From: Luteitalea sp.
GTDB taxonomy: Bacteria > Acidobacteriota > Vicinamibacteria > Vicinamibacterales > Vicinamibacteraceae
Assembly: GCA_009377495.1 (NCBI GenBank)
Contig: WHTZ01000015.1
Coordinates: forward strand, 40,160-64,159
DNA: 24,000 nt
Direction of reading: 5' to 3'
How positions within the stretch are numbered: the first letter of the stretch is position 1; every line of letters starts with the position of its first letter. The notes beneath the pieces are model-generated. The model made no database searches, was not told the DNA's origin, and saw only the letters and a program-made list of their open reading frames with translations. The position numbers and the translations under genes were made by a program. Positions 16,072 to 23,493 of the stretch are shown here, piece after piece.

Positions 16072-16893
16072 GTGATCGCGCTTGCCCTTTACGCTGTCGC
16101 CACGGCCGCATATATCTGGCGCTTCGTCCGTCGCGACCAACCCGGCCGCCACGTGCCGACCTTGCTCCTCGTCGCGGCCGTCCTCGTCCACACGTTCGTG
16201 ATCGGCATGCAGAGTGTCCAGGTCGGAGCAGCGCCGTTCGCTGGGCGCAGCGGTGCCGTGTCCACCTTCGTGTGGATGCTCGCCCTGGTCTACCTCTACA
16301 CGGAGATCTCAACCGAAGAGCTCGCAATTGGTGTCTTCATCGCGCCGCTCCTGACCGCACTGCAGATCATTCCGGCGTTCACGGCGGCCGCCGAGGAGCA
16401 CCCCGCGTTGCTCGACAACCCCCTGTTCGCGGTGCACGTCGCGTCGGTGCTTCTGGCGTATGCGAGCTTCGCGCTCGCCTTTGTCGTCGCCCTCACCTAC
16501 GTCCTGTTGTTTCGCGAGCTGAAGCGCCGGACGCCCGGTGTGTTCTTCTCGCGACTGCCGTCGCTACAGGTGCTCGACGCGATGAACATGCGCGCGGTCA
16601 CCGTGGGCTGGGCGTGCCTGACACTTGGTCTGATAGTGGGAACCTGGTGGGTCACGCAGGCCCGCCTCTACGCGGCTGATGACCCCCACGTCCGGGCGAT
16701 GTCGCTGCTCGATCCCACGATCCTCGTCGCCTGCTTGTCCTGGATGGTATATACCTTGCTTCTGGTTGGACGGCGTACGCGCGGCTGGGGCGGCCGCCGG
16801 GCGGCGTGGCTGTCGGCGCTCGGCTTCGGCCTGGTGTTGCTGAACTTTCTCCTGGTGGGCTATTTCTTCTCACGCAGCCACGGTTTCGTGTGA
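16072..16893 (+). CDS. CcsA/HemX-like cytochrome c assembly family membrane protein
   Basis: 273-aa polytopic protein with a Trp-rich segment (LGLIVGTWWVTQA) and C-terminal helices resembling the Cytochrom_C_asm family. Its stop overlaps the hemA ATG by 1 nt (TGATG), the usual position for hemX/ccsA-like genes. Confidence 0.75.
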   Translation: MIALALYAVATAAYIWRFVRRDQPGRHVPTLLLVAAVLVHTFVIGMQSVQVGAAPFAGRSGAVSTFVWMLALVYLYTEISTEELAIGVFIAPLLTALQIIPAFTAAAEEHPALLDNPLFAVHVASVLLAYASFALAFVVALTYVLLFRELKRRTPGVFFSRLPSLQVLDAMNMRAVTVGWACLTLGLIVGTWWVTQARLYAADDPHVRAMSLLDPTILVACLSWMVYTLLLVGRRTRGWGGRRAAWLSALGFGLVLLNFLLVGYFFSRSHGFV

Positions 16894-18206
16894 TGCACCT
16901 CGTCCTGATCGGCCTGAGCCACCACACCGCACCGCTCGAGCTACGCGAGCGCCTGGCGTTCTCCCGTACACGGCTACGGGCCGCGCTCGCCACGCTCGTC
17001 TCGCGGACCGAGGCAGGCGATGCGGTCCTGTTGTCGACCTGCAATCGCTCGGAGGTCTACGCCACCTGCGCCGAACCGGACCGCGCCGCCACTGCTCTCG
17101 CCGAGGTGCTGTGCAACACGCAAGGCGTGCCGCTCATGACCGTCGGCCCGTACCTCTATACGCGAACTGACGCAGACGCCGCGCAACATCTCTTTCGCGT
17201 GGCAGCCGGGCTCGACTCGCTCGTCGTGGGCGAGCCCGAGATCCTCGGCCAAGTGAAAGAGGCGTACCGCGTCGCCAGCGAGGCCCAGGGCACGGGAGCC
17301 GTCCTCAATCGCTTGTTCCACGGCGCATTTGGCGTCGGCAAACGTGTGCGGTCCGAGACAGCCTTGGCCGAAGGCGCCGTGTCGGTGAGCTACGCAGCCA
17401 TCAGGCTGGCCAAGAAGATCTTCGGCGACCTCAGCCATCTGCGCGTGCTCGTCATCGGGTCGGGCGAGATGGCGCGGCTGGCCGCCCTGCACTTTCAGAG
17501 CCAGCAGGTTGCGCGGTTGTCGGTCACGACACGCAGCGAGGACCGCGCCGAGGCGCTCGCAGCCGAAGTGGGCGGCGTGGCCGTCCCCTGGTCGACGCGT
17601 GAAATCGCGCTCGCTGACAGCGACGTGGTGGTCTCTGCAACAGGCGGGGGCGAGCTGGTGCTTACGCGGAATGTCGTTGCCACCGCAACCGCCGCCCGGC
17701 GCGGGCACCCGCTCTTTCTGCTCGACATGGCAGTGCCACGCGACGTCGATGCCTCCTCTGGCGACCTCGCGCAGGTCTTTCTCTACAACCTTGACGATCT
17801 GCGAAGCATCGTTCAGGAGAATCTTGCGCGTCGAACGGGTGAGATCGAAGCGGCTGAAGCAATCGTGCAGGATGAAGTCGAGGCGTTCATGGCCTGGATG
17901 CGATCGCGCCACGTGGTGCCCACGGTCGTCGCGTTGCGCCAGCGCTTCGAGCAGATTCGCCGGTCGGAGCTCGACCGGCTTTCCTCACGATTGTCCGGCT
18001 TGCCGCCCGACGCACGAGCTCGTGTCAACGAGGTCACGCGCCTGATTGTCGAAAAGCTCCTGCTCACGCCGACCGCGCAGCTCAAGTCCATCGACGATCG
18101 TGAAACAATGCGCGCGTACTCGGCCGCGTTACGCCGTCTCTTCGATCTCGAGGACGAAGACATGAGCGAGGCCGATACCACGCGGCGGGCTCGGACGGAA
18201 ACGTAG
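16893..18206 (+). CDS. hemA: Glutamyl-tRNA reductase
   Basis: MHLVLIGLSHHTAPLELRERLAF, LSTCNRSEVY (catalytic Cys), AAGLDSLVVGEPEILGQVK, the NADPH-binding VLVIGSGEMA, and a C-terminal dimerisation helix. ATG at 16893. Confidence 0.92.
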   Translation: MHLVLIGLSHHTAPLELRERLAFSRTRLRAALATLVSRTEAGDAVLLSTCNRSEVYATCAEPDRAATALAEVLCNTQGVPLMTVGPYLYTRTDADAAQHLFRVAAGLDSLVVGEPEILGQVKEAYRVASEAQGTGAVLNRLFHGAFGVGKRVRSETALAEGAVSVSYAAIRLAKKIFGDLSHLRVLVIGSGEMARLAALHFQSQQVARLSVTTRSEDRAEALAAEVGGVAVPWSTREIALADSDVVVSATGGGELVLTRNVVATATAARRGHPLFLLDMAVPRDVDASSGDLAQVFLYNLDDLRSIVQENLARRTGEIEAAEAIVQDEVEAFMAWMRSRHVVPTVVALRQRFEQIRRSELDRLSSRLSGLPPDARARVNEVTRLIVEKLLLTPTAQLKSIDDRETMRAYSAALRRLFDLEDEDMSEADTTRRARTET

Positions 18207-18218
18207 GAGCGAGGGGCC

Positions 18219-18337
18219 AGGGGCGAGGTCTCAGGGCCGTCTCAGGGACCAGGGAAAGCCCCGAGACAGCCTCGTCCCTGACGCCTGCCCTATGGACTGA
18301 GACAGCCCTGGCACCTCGCACCTTGGACCTCGCCCCT
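18219..18337 (+). other. Nested inverted-repeat element filling the hemA-hemC spacer
   Basis: Outer perfect 11-bp pair: AGGGGCGAGGT (18219-18229) with ACCTCGCCCCT (18327-18337, abutting the hemC ATG). Inner pair: 18233-18245 with 18297-18309, 12 of 13 bp. The GTCTCAGGG direct repeat is at 18228-18236 and 18239-18247. Two inverted GAGACAGCC copies are at 18263-18271 and 18299-18307. Confidence 0.45.
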
Positions 18338-19306
18338 ATGCTTCGCATTGGCACACGCGGCAGTCAGCTCGCACGCTGGCAGGCGCGGGCGGTCGCGGCA
18401 CAGCTCGAAGCGACCGCGTCCGCGCGCTGCGAGCTCGTTACGATTCGCACCAGCGGTGATCGGTTGGCCGAAGCGACGCTTGGAGAGGTGGGGGGAAAGC
18501 GGTTGTTCGTCAAGGAGCTCGAGGACGCGCTGCTCGCGGGCACGATTGATCTCGCGGTGCACAGCGCCAAGGATATGTCGGCCACGCTGCCCGACGAGCT
18601 CGCCCTCGGCGCCGTGCTGCCGCGTGAGGACCCCCGAGATGCGCTGGTTTTACCGCAGGCGAGGGGAGCCACAGCACCTGACGCCCACCTACAAACACTG
18701 CTGGGCGCTCGGCCACGGATTGGCACAAGCAGTGTCCGCCGCGTGGCACAACTGCATCGCGCGTTTCCTGATGCCATGTTTGGCGCTATCCGCGGCAATG
18801 TCGACACCCGGCTGCGCAAGCTCGACGAGGGCCAGTTCGATGCGATTGTGCTGGCCGCAGCCGGATTGCGGCGGCTCGGCTTCGACGACCGGATCAGCGC
18901 GCTCATCTCACCTGACGTCTGCTTGCCAGCGCCAGGCCAAGGCATCATCGCTATCCAGACCCTCGCGAGCCGAAACGATCTGCGCGAGTGCCTCACACTC
19001 CTCAATGACGCCGACGCATGGGCCGCCCTCGAAGCCGAGCACGCATTGGTTGCGGCGCTTGGAGGCGGTTGTCAAATCCCGCTCGGTGCCCTCGCGCACT
19101 TTGTCGATCACGAGACGCTCGAGCTGTCAGCAGTGGTCACATCGCTCGATGAGGAGCACGAGGTTCGCGCGGTTGGATTTGGTCGGCGAGAGGAGGCCGC
19201 CAACCTAGGCGGCCGGGTCGCCGACCAACTGCTCGCTGGCGGCGCCGGGACGATTCTCGACGGCCTTCGTGATCTGCAAGCCCCGGTCAAAGACCTGCAA
19301 CCGTAG
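18338..19306 (+). CDS. hemC: Hydroxymethylbilane synthase (porphobilinogen deaminase)
   Basis: MLRIGTRGSQLARWQA, FVKELEDALLAGTIDLAVHSAKD, IGTSSVRR, RGNVDTRLRKL, PAPGQGIIAIQ, and GGCQIPLGA (cofactor-binding Cys). ATG at 18338; the tracked TTG at 18323 is less likely. Confidence 0.92.
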   Translation: MLRIGTRGSQLARWQARAVAAQLEATASARCELVTIRTSGDRLAEATLGEVGGKRLFVKELEDALLAGTIDLAVHSAKDMSATLPDELALGAVLPREDPRDALVLPQARGATAPDAHLQTLLGARPRIGTSSVRRVAQLHRAFPDAMFGAIRGNVDTRLRKLDEGQFDAIVLAAAGLRRLGFDDRISALISPDVCLPAPGQGIIAIQTLASRNDLRECLTLLNDADAWAALEAEHALVAALGGGCQIPLGALAHFVDHETLELSAVVTSLDEEHEVRAVGFGRREEAANLGGRVADQLLAGGAGTILDGLRDLQAPVKDLQP

Positions 19307-19333
19307 GTCGGAGCTCCGTGCCATCCAGTGACA

Positions 19334-19354
19334 CCTGTGACGGTTCTTCACAGG
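19334..19354. promoter_or_regulatory. Perfect 7-bp inverted repeat CCTGTGA-N7-TCACAGG (candidate enhancer-binding-protein site or hemC-distal hairpin)
   Basis: CCTGTGA at 19334-19340 and TCACAGG at 19348-19354. A third CACAGG half-site is at 19364-19369, followed by GTCGTTTTAT. The repeat is centred about 53 nt upstream of the sigma-54-like GG. Confidence 0.3.
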
Positions 19355-19395
19355 GCACGTCGACACAGGCGTCGTTTTATCAGTGTCTACACGGA

Positions 19396-19411
19396 TGGTC
19401 CTCGGATTGCT
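19396..19411 (+). promoter_or_regulatory. Candidate sigma-54 (-24/-12) promoter upstream of the chimeric ORF/NtrC pair
   Basis: TGGTCCTCGGATTGCT has GG at 19397-19398, exactly 10 nt, then GC at 19409-19410, with TTGC at 19407-10. This matches the TGGCAC-N5-TTGCW spacing and core. The predicted start site is about 19422, 2 nt before ATG 19424. Confidence 0.35.
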
Positions 19412-19423
19412 TATCACATTTCC

Positions 19424-20584
19424 ATGAAACACGCGCTGTGGCTTCTGTTGCTCTTGTCGATTCCGTTCGGAACTCTCCATGGACAGGATGACGTTTCCAA
19501 CATCAACGCACGCTACATGGTCGAGAGCGTCGACATGTCGGGCGTGGCCGAAGCTGAAGTCAGCCTGGAGCTCCGCAATGACATGCAGGCCATGGTCGGT
19601 CAACGGCTCGATCCGGATGCTGCCGACCGTCTAGAGGAGCGATTGTCCCGCGAGCTGCCAGACTACGAGGTGAACCGCCGGATCGAACGCGGCAGCGAGC
19701 GCGGACGGATCCGCATGGTCTTCGAAGCTCAAAAGAAGCCCTGGATCCCATTTCGCCCGTCGCGTTCGATGTTGGCCTACCACTCCAAGCAAGGCTGGAG
19801 CAGCGTCCTGGACATCGATTGGACCGCCCGCCGCAACCACCGGTTCAGCCTAGGCTTGGTGTTCTGGAACGAGCAAGATCTGATCGAGGACTACGCGGGC
19901 TTCTGGCTGCGTTACGAGAACCGTTTCGCCGGGACTGAACGGCTCGGCCTCAGCATCGAGCTCTCCAGCTTCAGGGAGAAATGGGAAGACGCGACCTTGC
20001 GGGCTCTCGAGTCCCGACCCGACGGACCTGAAGCCTACCGGGCCCGTCAGATGATCGAGCCCGCGGTCACGTTCGCCCTTAGTCCGCGGTTCCGGATTCG
20101 TGCTGGAGCAAGCATCGGTGAGTTGGAATCGCACTCACAGTCCCCGGGATCTCAGGCCCTAGGCCCGTCGACACGCTATACGCTCCAGTTCGACGAAAGC
20201 GGCCCGACGGCGTGGGCCGATCCCGATCTCGTGAAAGGCATTCTCACGAACCTGTTCGAGAATGCGGCCGAGGCCGCAGCCGCCGGTGGGACAGTGTTGG
20301 CCACGGCCGGGGTCGCGAACGGGTTCGTGAACATTGAAGTTCACGACTCGGGCCCTGGCCTGGGCGACGAAGTCTTGCGGACGTTCGAGCCGACGATCAC
20401 GTTCAAAAAGCACGGCATGGGGCTGGGATTGTCCATCGCCCGCAAGAACGCGCTGCTTTCCGGCGGCGACATCCAGCCGGTCGTGAGCGTGCTGGGCGGC
20501 GCCGCGTTCCGGGTCGTGCTCCCCCAGGCCGAGGCCAGATCGTCGGCGCCAGCGTCCTCCATATCCGGATCATCAAGGTCATGA
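19424..20584 (+). CDS. Chimeric ORF: Sec signal peptide + POTRA-like domain + short Omp85-like beta region fused to a histidine-kinase HATPase_c domain (no TM, no HisKA/DHp). Possible fusion scar or pseudogene
   Basis: ATG at 19424 gives MKHALWLLLLLSIPFGTLHG|QDD. The POTRA-like pattern is YMVESVDMSGV...MVGQRLDPDAADRLEERL...GRIRMVFEAQK. Amphipathic beta strands follow (FSLGLVFWN, FWLRYENRF, LGLSIELSSF). From about 20174 the kinase ATPase domain begins: ADPDLVKGILTNLFENAAEA (N box), VHDSGPGL (G1) and HGMGLGLSIA (G2). The stop overlaps the downstream ATG (ATGA). Confidence 0.6.
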   Translation: MKHALWLLLLLSIPFGTLHGQDDVSNINARYMVESVDMSGVAEAEVSLELRNDMQAMVGQRLDPDAADRLEERLSRELPDYEVNRRIERGSERGRIRMVFEAQKKPWIPFRPSRSMLAYHSKQGWSSVLDIDWTARRNHRFSLGLVFWNEQDLIEDYAGFWLRYENRFAGTERLGLSIELSSFREKWEDATLRALESRPDGPEAYRARQMIEPAVTFALSPRFRIRAGASIGELESHSQSPGSQALGPSTRYTLQFDESGPTAWADPDLVKGILTNLFENAAEAAAAGGTVLATAGVANGFVNIEVHDSGPGLGDEVLRTFEPTITFKKHGMGLGLSIARKNALLSGGDIQPVVSVLGGAAFRVVLPQAEARSSAPASSISGSSRS

Positions 20585-21927
20585 CAGCGGCACGGCGTAT
20601 TCTCATCGTCGACGACGAGGCCAACATCGGGCGCTCGCTCCGGCTCATCTTCGAAGGCGGAGACTATACGGTCGACGTGTGTCACAGCGCGGCCGAATTC
20701 CGGTCCTACATCGCCTCGCGCCGGGCGGACCTGTACTTCCTGGACGTGAGGCTCCCGGACGGTAACGGCATCGACCTGCTTCAATTGATCCGGCAGGCGG
20801 ACGACCCCTCTCCGGCGGTCATGATCTCCGGACACGGCACGATCGCGGATGCGGTCCAGGCTACCCGCGCTGGCGCGTTCGACTTCCTCGAAAAGCCCCT
20901 GGGACGGGACCGCGTCCTGCTTGTCGCCCGTAACGCCTTGGAGCATTCGAGCCTGGAACGCGAGAACAGGCAGTTCCGCGAGCTGGTCGGCGAAGGGCCG
21001 ACGATGATTGGGCGCAGCCCGACGTTCCAGCGCGCGCAACAGGAGGCGGCCCGCGTGGCCCGATCTGACGCACGCGTCCTCCTGATTGGCGAATCCGGCG
21101 TGGGCAAGGAGCTGCTTGCGGCCTACATCCACCGCGAGAGCCCATTCGCGTCCGGGCCCTTTGTGAAGGTGAACTGCGCCGCCATTCCCGCCGAGCTGAT
21201 CGAAAGCGAGCTATTTGGGCACGAGAAAGGTGCCTTCACCGGAGCCGCGGCTCGACGCCGGGGCAAGTTCGAGCTCGCCGACCGCGGAACACTCTTCCTA
21301 GACGAAGTCGGCGACCTTCACGAGGCGTCGCAGGCCAAGCTCCTGCGCGTTCTCGAGGACGGGGAGTTCCACCGCCTGGGCGGAGAGCACACGGTCCGCG
21401 TGTCGGTGCGCGTGATCGCGGCCACGAACCGCGACCTCGCACAGCGGATTGCGGAAGGGCGGTTTCGTGAGGATCTCTACTACAGATTGAGCGTCGTCCC
21501 CATCCGTGTGCCCGCCCTCCGGGAGCGGCCGGAAGATACTCACGACCTGGCGACATATTTCCTCGCGGAGTTCTGCCAGCGCAATAACTTCAAACCGAAG
21601 ACGATCGACGCCGAGGTGTTCCCGATTCTGGAGGCGTATACCTGGCCCGGCAACGCGCGTGAGCTGCGCAACGCCATCGAACGCATGGCCATCCTCACTC
21701 CTGACGCGACGATCACGCCGGATGCGATCCCAATCGACATCCGGACACCGCGGCCGGCGTCACCCTCGGAGCTTCAGGAAGCACGCGATGCCGCCGAACG
21801 CGCCCGGCTCATCCGCGCCCTGGAGGAAACCGGCTGGAACGTCTCCAGCGCCGCACGCCGGCTCGGGATTGAACGGACAAACCTGCACAAGCGGATCCGC
21901 GCCTTGGGGCTGGCGCGGGATAGATAG
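20581..21927 (+). CDS. Sigma-54-dependent NtrC/Fis-family response regulator (bacterial enhancer-binding protein)
   Basis: Receiver: [32 protein letters not shown]+: [23 protein letters not shown] (GAFTGA loop), [26 protein letters not shown]-terminal Fis-type HTH: [20 protein letters not shown]. Confidence 0.92.
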
Positions 21928-21954
21928 TGGTTCCTTTTGCATTAAGATCGCGGC

Positions 21955-23493
21955 ATGCCGCCTGTCTACATCGTTGGCGCCGGGCCGGGTGATCCAACGC
22001 TCATCACCTTGCGCGGTCACCGCCTCTTGACGAACGCGGATGTGGTGGTGCACGACCATCTCGTGCATCCCCGCTTGTTACGGTCGGGGCGGCCCGATGC
22101 TGAGTACATCGATGTTGGTGATGCTGCCCCGCGCCAAATCGCGCAGGAAGCCATTTGTTTGCTCCTGGTCGAGAAAGCGCGCGAAGGCAGGCACGTCGTT
22201 CGTCTCAAGTGGGGCGACCCCTTCGTCTTCGACAGCGGCGGAAAGGAAGCGCTGTTCCTTCACGAGCACGGCATTCCGTTCGAGGTCGTGCCAGGTGTGC
22301 CGGCGCTCGTCGCGCACGCGGCGTATGCGGGCATCCCATTGACCTACCCGGATGCGGGCGATGCCGTGACGCTCGTGCGCGGGTACGAGGACGGCACGAG
22401 CACGGCGCCGCAAATTAACTGGGAATCGGTCGCGCGTCTCGAGGGGTCGATTGCGTGCTACGCGGGACCCAGCCAGCTCGCACCGATTGTCACGGCGCTC
22501 CTCGACAACGGCTGCTCGCCGGATGAGGCGGCAGCGCTCGTGACCGATGGGACGCTTCCGCAGCAATCCACCGCACGGATGACGCTCGGCCAACTCGCCG
22601 ACCACGTCAAGAGCACACCGCCGACCGAGCCTGCGGTGCTCGTGGTTGGGCGGGTTGCGGGGCTGCGGGAGCACCTACGCTGGTTCGACGCCAGGCCGTT
22701 GTTCGGCCGCCGCATCGTGGTGACGCGCGCTCGGGAACAGGCGGGCGAGCTGGTCGAGCGGCTCGAAGAGCTCGGTGCGCAGGCGATTGAAGCGCCGACG
22801 ATTCGCATCGAGGCCGCGGCCGATCTTGCCCCGCTCGACGAAGCATGCGAACAGGCGAGCAGCTACGATTGGATCGTCTTTACCAGCGTCAACGGCGTGG
22901 AGCACTTCATGCGCCGTTTCCTGGGAGGGGGACGTGACATCCGGACCCTCAAGGGCCCCAGGCTTTGCGCCGTCGGACCGTCCACGGCGGAGCACCTGGC
23001 GCGCTACTACCTGCACGTCGCGGTCGTGCCGCCCGACGATCGGTCGGCGGCCATCGTGCGAGCCATGCGCGAGCGTGGCAGCCTGACCGGGCAGCGGGTG
23101 TTACTGCCGCGCACAGATATCGCGCGCGAGACGCTGCCGGACGAGTTGCGGCAGGCAGGCGCAGCCGTGGTTGAGGTCGCAGCCTACCGAACCGTGCGCG
23201 AACCGCCGTCACGGCAGGCAGATCCAGACATCTACAAGATGCTGCTCGAGGGTCAAATCGACGTCGTGACGTTTACGAGCGCATCGAGTGTGCGGCACTT
23301 CGTCACGAACATCGGCGAGGATCAGGCCGCCGACCTGCTCAGTCGAACAGCGGTTGCGTCGATTGGTCCCGTCACGGCGGAAGCGGCACAGCAGCTCGAG
23401 ATCAATACGACGATCATGCCAGCCAGCTACACGATTCCGGCGCTGGTCGACGCTATCGTGGCGTGGGCACAGGCAAACGGGGGAAAGGGATAG
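21955..23493 (+). CDS. cobA/hemD: Bifunctional uroporphyrinogen-III C-methyltransferase / uroporphyrinogen-III synthase
   Basis: N-terminal SUMT: VYIVGAGPGDPTLITLRG...ADVVVHD, VRLKWGDPFVFDSGGKE, FEVVPGVPA. The C-terminal half is HemD-like: RRIVVTRAREQAGELVERLEELGA, DWIVFTSVNGV, VVTFTSASSV. Confidence 0.9.
   Translation: MPPVYIVGAGPGDPTLITLRGHRLLTNADVVVHDHLVHPRLLRSGRPDAEYIDVGDAAPRQIAQEAICLLLVEKAREGRHVVRLKWGDPFVFDSGGKEALFLHEHGIPFEVVPGVPALVAHAAYAGIPLTYPDAGDAVTLVRGYEDGTSTAPQINWESVARLEGSIACYAGPSQLAPIVTALLDNGCSPDEAAALVTDGTLPQQSTARMTLGQLADHVKSTPPTEPAVLVVGRVAGLREHLRWFDARPLFGRRIVVTRAREQAGELVERLEELGAQAIEAPTIRIEAAADLAPLDEACEQASSYDWIVFTSVNGVEHFMRRFLGGGRDIRTLKGPRLCAVGPSTAEHLARYYLHVAVVPPDDRSAAIVRAMRERGSLTGQRVLLPRTDIARETLPDELRQAGAAVVEVAAYRTVREPPSRQADPDIYKMLLEGQIDVVTFTSASSVRHFVTNIGEDQAADLLSRTAVASIGPVTAEAAQQLEINTTIMPASYTIPALVDAIVAWAQANGGKG

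Follow-up and report, generated by a model that had tools for sequence, protein, structure and literature searches.

Organization of the open reading frame

The open reading frame (ORF) analysed here encodes a protein of 386 aa on a 24,000-nucleotide (nt) stretch of DNA (hereafter the window) from a metagenome-assembled genome (MAG) of Luteitalea sp. (GenBank assembly GCA_009377495.1, contig WHTZ01000015.1, positions 40,160 to 64,159 of the forward strand). It occupies 19424..20584 of the window on the plus strand (ATG at 19424, stop codon at 20582-20584), and its product is recorded in GenBank as MPY88330.1 (locus tag GEU99_10425) with the label 'hypothetical protein'. In order, the product was found to contain a signal peptide, a single POTRA-like domain, a partial Omp85 barrel and a full HATPase_c domain. 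As set out below, the ORF is very probably a chimera, and most likely a dead one, that arose when a single internal deletion took ~2.1-2.4 kb out of a four-gene operon.

The N-terminal 247 aa gave no match to Pfam or NCBIfam models, PF01103 included, and their identity was assigned from homologues and from the structure model of an intact homologue. In a collection of 5.8 billion clustered proteins, the N-terminal ~60% of the query was aligned with ~500-aa PF01103 (Omp85) proteins at 40-61% identity (the closest above 50%). In a single pairwise comparison with the Omp85-like protein of locus L002, aa 21-247 of the window protein gave a gap-free alignment with residues 107-333 (58% identity, E 1e-91). 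The Sec-type signal peptide (MKHALWLLLLLSIPFGTLHG, aa 1-20, 19424..19483, plus strand) aligns with the signal peptides of homologues and is read as the native N-terminus of the Omp85-like gene; its core (aa 4-11) is the longest, and the sole long, hydrophobic run in the product. The AlphaFold model of the intact homologue P0005 (pLDDT 86) comprises 16 strands as well as a signal peptide and two POTRA domains; its best Foldseek matches were BamA and TamA (probability 1.0). The POTRA-like domain of the window protein (~aa 32-104, 19517..19735, plus strand) aligns with the beta-alpha-alpha-beta-beta POTRA2 of P0005 (residues 118-190 of the model) and equals POTRA2 of the two-POTRA homologues, with no direct match to the Pfam POTRA models. 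The barrel fragment (~aa 116-247, 19769..20164, plus strand) holds strands 1-7 and the first five residues of strand 8 out of 16: residue 333 of P0005 lies inside strand 8 (aa 329-343 in the model), so that the window protein keeps 7 1/3 strands. A TLRGWNK motif stands in near-invariant columns at aa 416-419 of P0005, and this region is deleted in the window protein together with the C-terminal strands; we take the motif to be of the RG(F/Y/W) type and, by analogy with BamA, place it in loop 6. A signal peptide and at least one POTRA domain, as expected of the Omp85 superfamily, are thus present in the window protein, and the complete 16-strand barrel is not.

Between the signal peptide and the POTRA-like domain (window 19484-19516, compared with columns 70-150 of alignment A1), the first POTRA-like repeat of most homologues is absent. 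Single-POTRA members of 410-440 aa are common (for example P0020, and P0242 within the complete gene cassette of L061), and because such members occur in intact cassettes, the one-POTRA state of the window protein is taken as natural variation and not as a second scar. An unusual expansion was observed in P0243 (959 aa), a member of the same Omp85-like family with about seven tandem POTRA-like repeats before the barrel.

The C-terminal half comprises the complete catalytic and ATP-binding (CA, HATPase_c) domain of a histidine kinase (aa 248-369, 20165..20530, plus strand), equivalent to aa 338-460 of the kinase. The Pfam HATPase_c profile (111 positions) was matched over positions 2-110 by aa 266-369 (E 7.8e-13), NCBIfam aligned just the last ~120 aa, with the C-terminal ends of kinases such as AtoS, ZraS and FixL, and all four CA motifs were located, namely the N box (aa 274-284) and the G1 (307-313), F (321-327) and G2 (331-337) boxes. 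Within the above collection, the last ~32% of the query was aligned with ~465-aa HAMP-HisKA-HATPase kinases at 57-72% identity, and aa 248-369 are 68% identical to aa 338-460 of the L002 kinase (E 1e-49, single pairwise comparison). The kinase-derived part begins ~80 residues past the H-box HELKNSL, and both the HAMP (aa 183-234) and HisKA (aa 250-311) domains of the intact kinase, in which no PAS domain was matched, lie outside the remnant. With respect to class I kinases, the CA motifs are therefore present, and the dimerization and histidine phosphotransfer (DHp) domain with its H-box and the membrane sensor with HAMP are lacking. The kinase is labelled NtrY by JGI; no curated NCBIfam cut-off was reached, so that the names NtrY and NtrX are labels only.

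An initial annotation, made from the DNA letters and their ORF translations, had described a POTRA/Omp85-like N-terminus joined to a HATPase_c domain with N, G1 and G2 boxes and with neither DHp domain, H-box nor transmembrane (TM) helix. Pfam, hydropathy (no 19-residue segment of the product reached TM-like values) and homologues bear this description out and add the F box, and inspection of the ORFs agreed that no other plus-strand frame is open across 19424-20584 to supply the missing parts. A hidden DHp/HisKA hairpin, also considered there, is absent, as the kinase part starts downstream of the H-box. Domain boundaries were likewise to be drawn by Pfam: in the scan of the 386-aa product HATPase_c was the single domain found and HisKA, HAMP and POTRA/Omp85 were all without a match, which settles the HATPase_c boundaries and the absence of HisKA, but the POTRA/Bac_surface_Ag part was not recognized by a domain model and had to be assigned through homologues.

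The intact cassette in relatives and the junction of the probable deletion

In relatives, an intact cassette was found on one strand in the order Omp85-like protein, secreted protein of ~190 aa, HAMP-HisKA-HATPase kinase and NtrC-family regulator. The same order was present in 47 relatives (L001, L002 and 45 loci obtained by a scan of Acidobacteriota species genomes), the scanned carriers including Vicinamibacterales, Solibacteraceae and others, and among soil Acidobacteriota the intact operon occurs widely, with Vicinamibacterales, Bryobacteraceae and others as carriers. By tblastn and pairwise alignments, the junction between the two halves of the window protein was placed at 20164/20165 on the plus strand (..GCC CTA GGC/CCG TCG ACA.., SQALG/PSTRY), inside the interval of nt 20130-20175 that had been estimated from the letters alone; the predicted junction-spanning tryptic peptide of the chimera is AGASIGELESHSQSPGSQALGPSTR. 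No break in GC content or skew was found at the junction. The missing segment, measured in 39 loci between the positions homologous to the window breakpoints, amounts to 2,102-2,381 nt (median 2,174), and the missing parts of the Omp85-like, 190-aa and kinase genes were not found elsewhere in the window by tblastn. Of the four genes, the regulator alone is full length, the 190-aa gene is gone, and what remains of the Omp85-like and kinase genes is two truncated pieces joined into one ORF.

These data point to a single deletion, since the two halves are collinear with two genes of one cassette, the architecture is confined to a single lineage, and the promoter and palindrome of the cassette (described below) are kept. 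The deletion would have taken the last 8 2/3 barrel strands, the whole ~190-aa gene and kinase residues 1-337 (TM sensor, HAMP and DHp) and would be in frame by chance, so that the native promoter, start codon and signal peptide would be read into the ATP-binding domain and on to the regulator. A deletion joining the 5' part of an omp85-family gene with the 3' part of an ntrB-like gene was one of the two readings offered in the initial annotation; the collinearity of the cassette upholds it, and the synteny comparison suggested there places separate Omp85-like and kinase genes in the cassette of relatives. It is refined in that the ~190-aa gene between them was also lost and the kinase is of the HAMP type.

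The remnant may still be transcribed from the sigma-54 promoter of the cassette, with translation starting at the native ATG. Any product would be expected to leave the cytoplasm through the Sec pathway and would be unable to close a barrel; a phospho-acceptor for its ATPase domain would be missing, as would ATP once in the periplasm. Because barrel closure, phospho-acceptor and periplasmic ATP would all be lacking, the product is most likely non-functional and would be degraded.

Two repeats were considered as recombination substrates for the window deletion and rejected. In the 13-nt near-repeat GGCACGTCGACAC (19354-19366) and GGCCCGTCGACAC (20162-20174, across the junction), regarded as a chance match, and in a 25-nt repeat of 80% identity (coding for EPAVTF and EPTITF, respectively), both copies remain and the geometry is unfit. 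Short pairs similar to these are many in the region.

Second assembly and haplotype

At the 90% level, the window protein clusters with P0121 (387 aa), a second member that comes from the Logan assembly of run SRR10173838. The respective contig (L057, 3,738 nt) covers the 3' part of hemC, the chimera, the regulator and the 5' part of cobA. Over these 3,738 nt it shares 99.79% identity and an identical junction with the window, from which it differs by five single nucleotide polymorphisms (SNPs) and one 3-nt indel. Owing to the indel (20382..20383, plus strand), the window allele reads RT-FEP in place of RTLFEP, without the Leu codon of an LFEPTI motif shared by the whole family, and at position 19577 the window encodes N52 and L057 encodes D52. 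Run SRR10173838 belongs to PRJNA494230, which comprises metagenomes of Centrosaurus fossil bone and its mudstone (PMC8067395). The MAGs of this project were obtained by MEGAHIT co-assembly of three metagenomes followed by SPAdes re-assembly, and three of them are Luteitalea sp. (PMC8067395). Judging from the organism name, the neighbouring protein accessions and the 99.8% identity, the window MAG is probably one of these three. L057 is probably not an independent sample, but it represents an independent assembler and a second haplotype.

A short-read MAG from a co-assembly of three metagenomes with strain heterogeneity is where an assembly artefact could arise, by the skipping of ~2.2 kb or the joining of contigs while the real genome is intact, and L057 probably comes from the same project. 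However, the identical junction was produced by the Logan assembler on a contig with five SNPs and one indel, and De Bruijn contigs hold just the k-mers of reads, so that the junction k-mers exist unless a long exact repeat is shared by the two breakpoints, of which none is visible. Both sides of the junction come from the same cassette in the right order and orientation without a composition break, and a near-identical intact Omp85-like or kinase protein was not found in the protein collection, which includes Logan gene calls. A chimeric contig, against which the initial annotation had cautioned, is very unlikely in view of the second assembly and haplotype with the identical junction, and an artefact of either kind is regarded as very improbable.

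The deletion could also be real and be carried by a minority or transient variant of a population that is predominantly intact, as two haplotypes were seen in one project and assemblers can choose one branch of a bubble. The deletion is nevertheless present in both assemblies and both haplotypes, the searched collections, Logan contigs included, yielded no close-relative copy (above 61-72% identity) of any part of the missing 2.2 kb, and the 32-mer just left of the junction had no other match in JGI metagenome contigs; this explanation is held to be very improbable.

Distribution of the architecture and a second fusion

Among the 5.8 billion clustered proteins, no orthologue with the full-length architecture was found besides the protein itself. 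By an exhaustive phmmer search of 1.84 billion representatives, just the protein itself was matched over both halves at full length, with P0021 as the one look-alike, and in 185,579 species genomes 53 related loci were found, each matching one half or the other and none both. With orthologues of the full architecture absent from all three collections, the genuinely new architecture that the initial annotation had offered as its other reading is not supported.

P0021 (309 aa, L058:8001-8930, compared with L063:7173-10491) is a second fusion of an Omp85-like N-terminus to a CA domain. It consists of a signal peptide and an Omp85-like N-terminus (28% identity to aa 21-177 of the window protein) joined to a CA domain (68% identity to aa 261-377); the N-terminal part is 86% identical to intact 405-aa Omp85-like proteins, and the C-terminal part is 92% identical to an intact 496-aa kinase of a MAG labelled Bryobacteraceae. 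The source of P0021 is probably Bryobacteraceae. The left side of L058 is syntenic with L063, in which an intact Omp85-like gene, a 204-aa gene and a kinase are found. Alignment of the two DNA sequences revealed a 2,346-nt in-frame deletion with its ends in two copies of an 11-nt repeat (TGCGGCTGGCC), that is, a textbook microhomology deletion. No regulator-like sequence was found in the L058 locus, and the 3' end of the kinase gene is also lost. In L063 (10681-19491), the place expected for the regulator, after the kinase, is taken up by a fragment of a group II intron maturase and by phage-like genes. The breakpoints of the window and P0021 fusions differ in both genes, and P0021 is interpreted as the outcome of an independent event confined to one lineage. 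By analogy, the P0021 case, where the deletion mechanism is seen directly, lends support to a deletion in the window.

The P0021 product is unchanged on five contigs from at least three samples. Its pairwise dN/dS values (0.18-0.28) are not clearly elevated against those of seven upstream housekeeping neighbours (0.06-0.27) and of an adjacent 144-aa ORF (0.52). Its CA domain differs from that of the intact orthologue at eight residues; at six of them, with L>P and A>P among the changes, the fusion carries the derived state where 10 outgroups are invariant.

The window ORF is intact in two haplotypes, has all ATP-binding motifs and keeps its promoter, its signal peptide and, through ATGA, its coupling to the regulator. 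This would suit a functional new architecture kept by selection, either as an exported or membrane-associated ATP-binding protein or as an ORF that carries sigma-54 transcription and translational coupling on to the regulator. The independent in-frame fusion of the second lineage, in which promoter, signal peptide and whole CA domain are kept, the product being unchanged on the five contigs and its dN/dS not near 1, speaks in the same direction. This possibility is nonetheless considered very improbable, because each fusion is found in a single lineage with close or fairly close intact relatives and without orthologues, the breakpoints do not coincide in either gene, and the P0021 fusion has no downstream regulator and carries the derived changes at invariant positions of its CA domain. 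Moreover, the window allele has lost a family-invariant Leu codon, 7 1/3 of 16 strands make no Omp85 barrel, a CA domain without DHp has no phospho-acceptor, and one in three random deletions is in frame while thousands of cassettes have been sampled.

A related proposal is that in-frame fusions of this kind are favoured outcomes of cassette dismantling whose product or translation is useful. It is drawn from the independent origins in the Luteitalea and the probable Bryobacteraceae lineages, with promoter, signal peptide and whole ATP-binding domain kept each time, and is given a small chance of being right. If true, such fusions may keep the sigma-54 activator expressed by translational coupling, or may act as an ATP-binding envelope protein.

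Age of the probable deletion and selection on the fragments

Neither stop codons nor frameshifts were found in the chimera in the two haplotypes. The haplotype differences in the chimera comprise one non-synonymous change (N52D), the one lost family-invariant Leu codon and no synonymous change, versus three synonymous changes and one non-synonymous change in the regulator; these events are few, and they lean to relaxed constraint in a way that is suggestive only. The deletion is estimated to be recent on the scale of the family, with which the lack of a clear excess of divergence in the fragments is in keeping.

Several observations weigh against a dead remnant of a deletion. The same lack of excess divergence equally fails to prove loss of function: relative to the regulator, the divergence of the fragments is average (ranks 13 and 14 of 23, by mean identity to 22 intact relatives), and the departures from near-invariant columns are 2/47 in the N-terminal part and 5/60 (tied highest) in the C-terminal part, the regulator being also high (19/260). 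Both independent fusions keep the whole CA domain, with breakpoints ~11 residues apart, which selection could explain as well as chance. The junction is known from assembled contigs, and an intact allele may coexist in the population. The nearest intact relatives share just ~60-70% identity with the window, too little to trace its original breakpoints exactly or a microhomology at them. On balance, a chimera produced by deletion is still strongly preferred.

Control region, regulator and genomic neighbourhood

A sigma-54-type -24/-12 element (TGGTCCTCGGATTGC, 19396..19410, plus strand) has its first base 28 nt upstream of the ATG of the chimera. An element of the form [T/G/C]GGC-N8-TTGC starts 27-29 nt upstream of the start codon in the window and in 39/39 relatives displayed (within L001-L050, before the Omp85-like gene), and it is this positional conservation, and not the motif count, that supports the promoter. 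By the 27-29 nt spacing, transcription is predicted to start 1-3 nt before the ATG, giving a transcript that would be leaderless or nearly so. To our knowledge, leaderless sigma-54 transcripts are unusual. In one clade, ATCAAC-N3-TTGTA was observed directly 5' of the -24 element.

Further upstream lies a palindrome (CACCTGTGACGGTTCTTCACAGG, 19332..19354, plus strand) with the family consensus CACAGGTGTGAC-N6-GTCACAGG (TGTGAC-N6-GTCACA). In relatives it is found ~50-75 nt upstream of the -24 element, the same promoter distance being kept in 39 relatives, and the most enriched 6-mers were CACAGG, GGTGTG and GTGTGA. The palindrome is probably the binding site (upstream activating sequence) for the NtrC-family activator of the cassette. 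The position of this conserved palindrome in front of a sigma-54 promoter makes it probable that the regulator activates its own operon. With the kinase of that regulator lost, expression of the remnant would then probably be low.

The NtrC-family sigma-54 activator (20581..21927, plus strand) is intact with REC, AAA+ and HTH_8 domains, and its counterparts in the cassettes of relatives are ~70% identical to it. As the initial annotation had noted, its start codon and the stop of the chimera overlap (ATGA). No other kinase was found in the window, in line with the orphaned state proposed there. On the left, the chimera is flanked by hemC (porphobilinogen deaminase, 18323..19306, plus strand), the stop codon of which is 25 nt from the palindrome, and on the right the regulator is followed, 27 nt after its stop codon, by a cobA-hemD fusion (21955-23493). 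The cassette remnant thus lies within a haem-biosynthesis cluster (window 16072-23493): before the chimera come a ccsA-like gene for cytochrome c assembly, hemA and hemC, and after the regulator comes cobA-hemD. This location is specific to the lineage, because 0/47 relatives have hem genes beside the cassette.

The ~190-aa protein and other eroded cassettes

The ~190-aa gene that is missing from the window was identified at L002:7500-8084, at L001:3756-4325 and in ~40 other loci. It encodes a secreted protein with a signal peptide ending in AQ and with the invariant segments SYDLWEERFAV, AEAWC, FWIRLEY, LSRR and EAGPFRL, and its homologues (at least 2,822) are every one annotated as 'hypothetical'. 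The protein had no match to Pfam, NCBIfam or PDB sequences, and its AlphaFold model (pLDDT 78.5) had no match in the PDB by Foldseek at E <= 0.001. Literature searches on the cassette returned nothing relevant, and the intact cassette appears to be undescribed, though abundant in soil Acidobacteriota.

In L003 (894-4459, Luteitalea sp. Dino_bin44, PRJNA494230), nothing of the cassette follows the 190-aa gene, which is met there by a truncated outer-membrane gene of TonB-dependent-like type in convergent orientation. This locus was considered as the intact counterpart of the window and rejected, being a 58%-identical paralogue or orthologue of another organism and itself truncated after the 190-aa gene. 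Together with the chimera, the three other eroded copies (L003, L058 and L063) indicate that the cassette is repeatedly dismantled in nature.

Comparison with known systems

One in-frame deletion accounts here for what looked, in a MAG, like a 'novel domain combination' without a coherent topology, which calls for caution in annotation: GenBank carries the chimera as an ordinary hypothetical protein, not as a pseudogene, and a sigma-54 activator is left without a kinase in the window. The more interesting by-product is the intact cassette, with an Omp85-family protein of one or two POTRA domains, a ~190-aa secreted protein, a kinase and a sigma-54 activator under a promoter at a fixed distance.

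Compared with BamA and TamA (Omp85, PF01103), the N-terminal 247 aa of the window protein are homologous in the signal peptide, the POTRA domain and the first barrel strands, whereas just 7 1/3 of the 16 strands are kept and TLRGWNK and the C-terminal strands are gone. The intact family differs from BamA in having one or two POTRA domains, with TIGR03303 at E 0.004, far under its cut-off, and it is encoded with a two-component system and not with BAM or TamB partners. As regards the two-component systems NtrY/NtrX and AtoS/AtoC, the CA domain that makes up the C-terminal 122 aa comes from a HAMP-HisKA-HATPase kinase, the best NCBIfam alignments being to the C-termini of AtoS and ZraS, and the start of the downstream NtrC/NtrX/AtoC-like regulator (REC-AAA+-HTH_8) overlaps the kinase stop codon; in contrast, the window remnant is without DHp/H-box, HAMP and membrane sensor, and neither kinase nor regulator reaches an equivalog cut-off.

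There is also a likeness to the chimeras and pseudogenes that arise from intra-operon deletion by illegitimate recombination or replication slippage at short repeats. One contiguous loss, collinear flanks and restriction to a single lineage are shared with them, whereas the window ORF has no stops or frameshifts yet. In the parallel L058/L063 pair, the junction falls in the 11-nt direct repeat. The ORF of the window is an example of this well-known kind, a chimeric ORF left by an intra-operon deletion.

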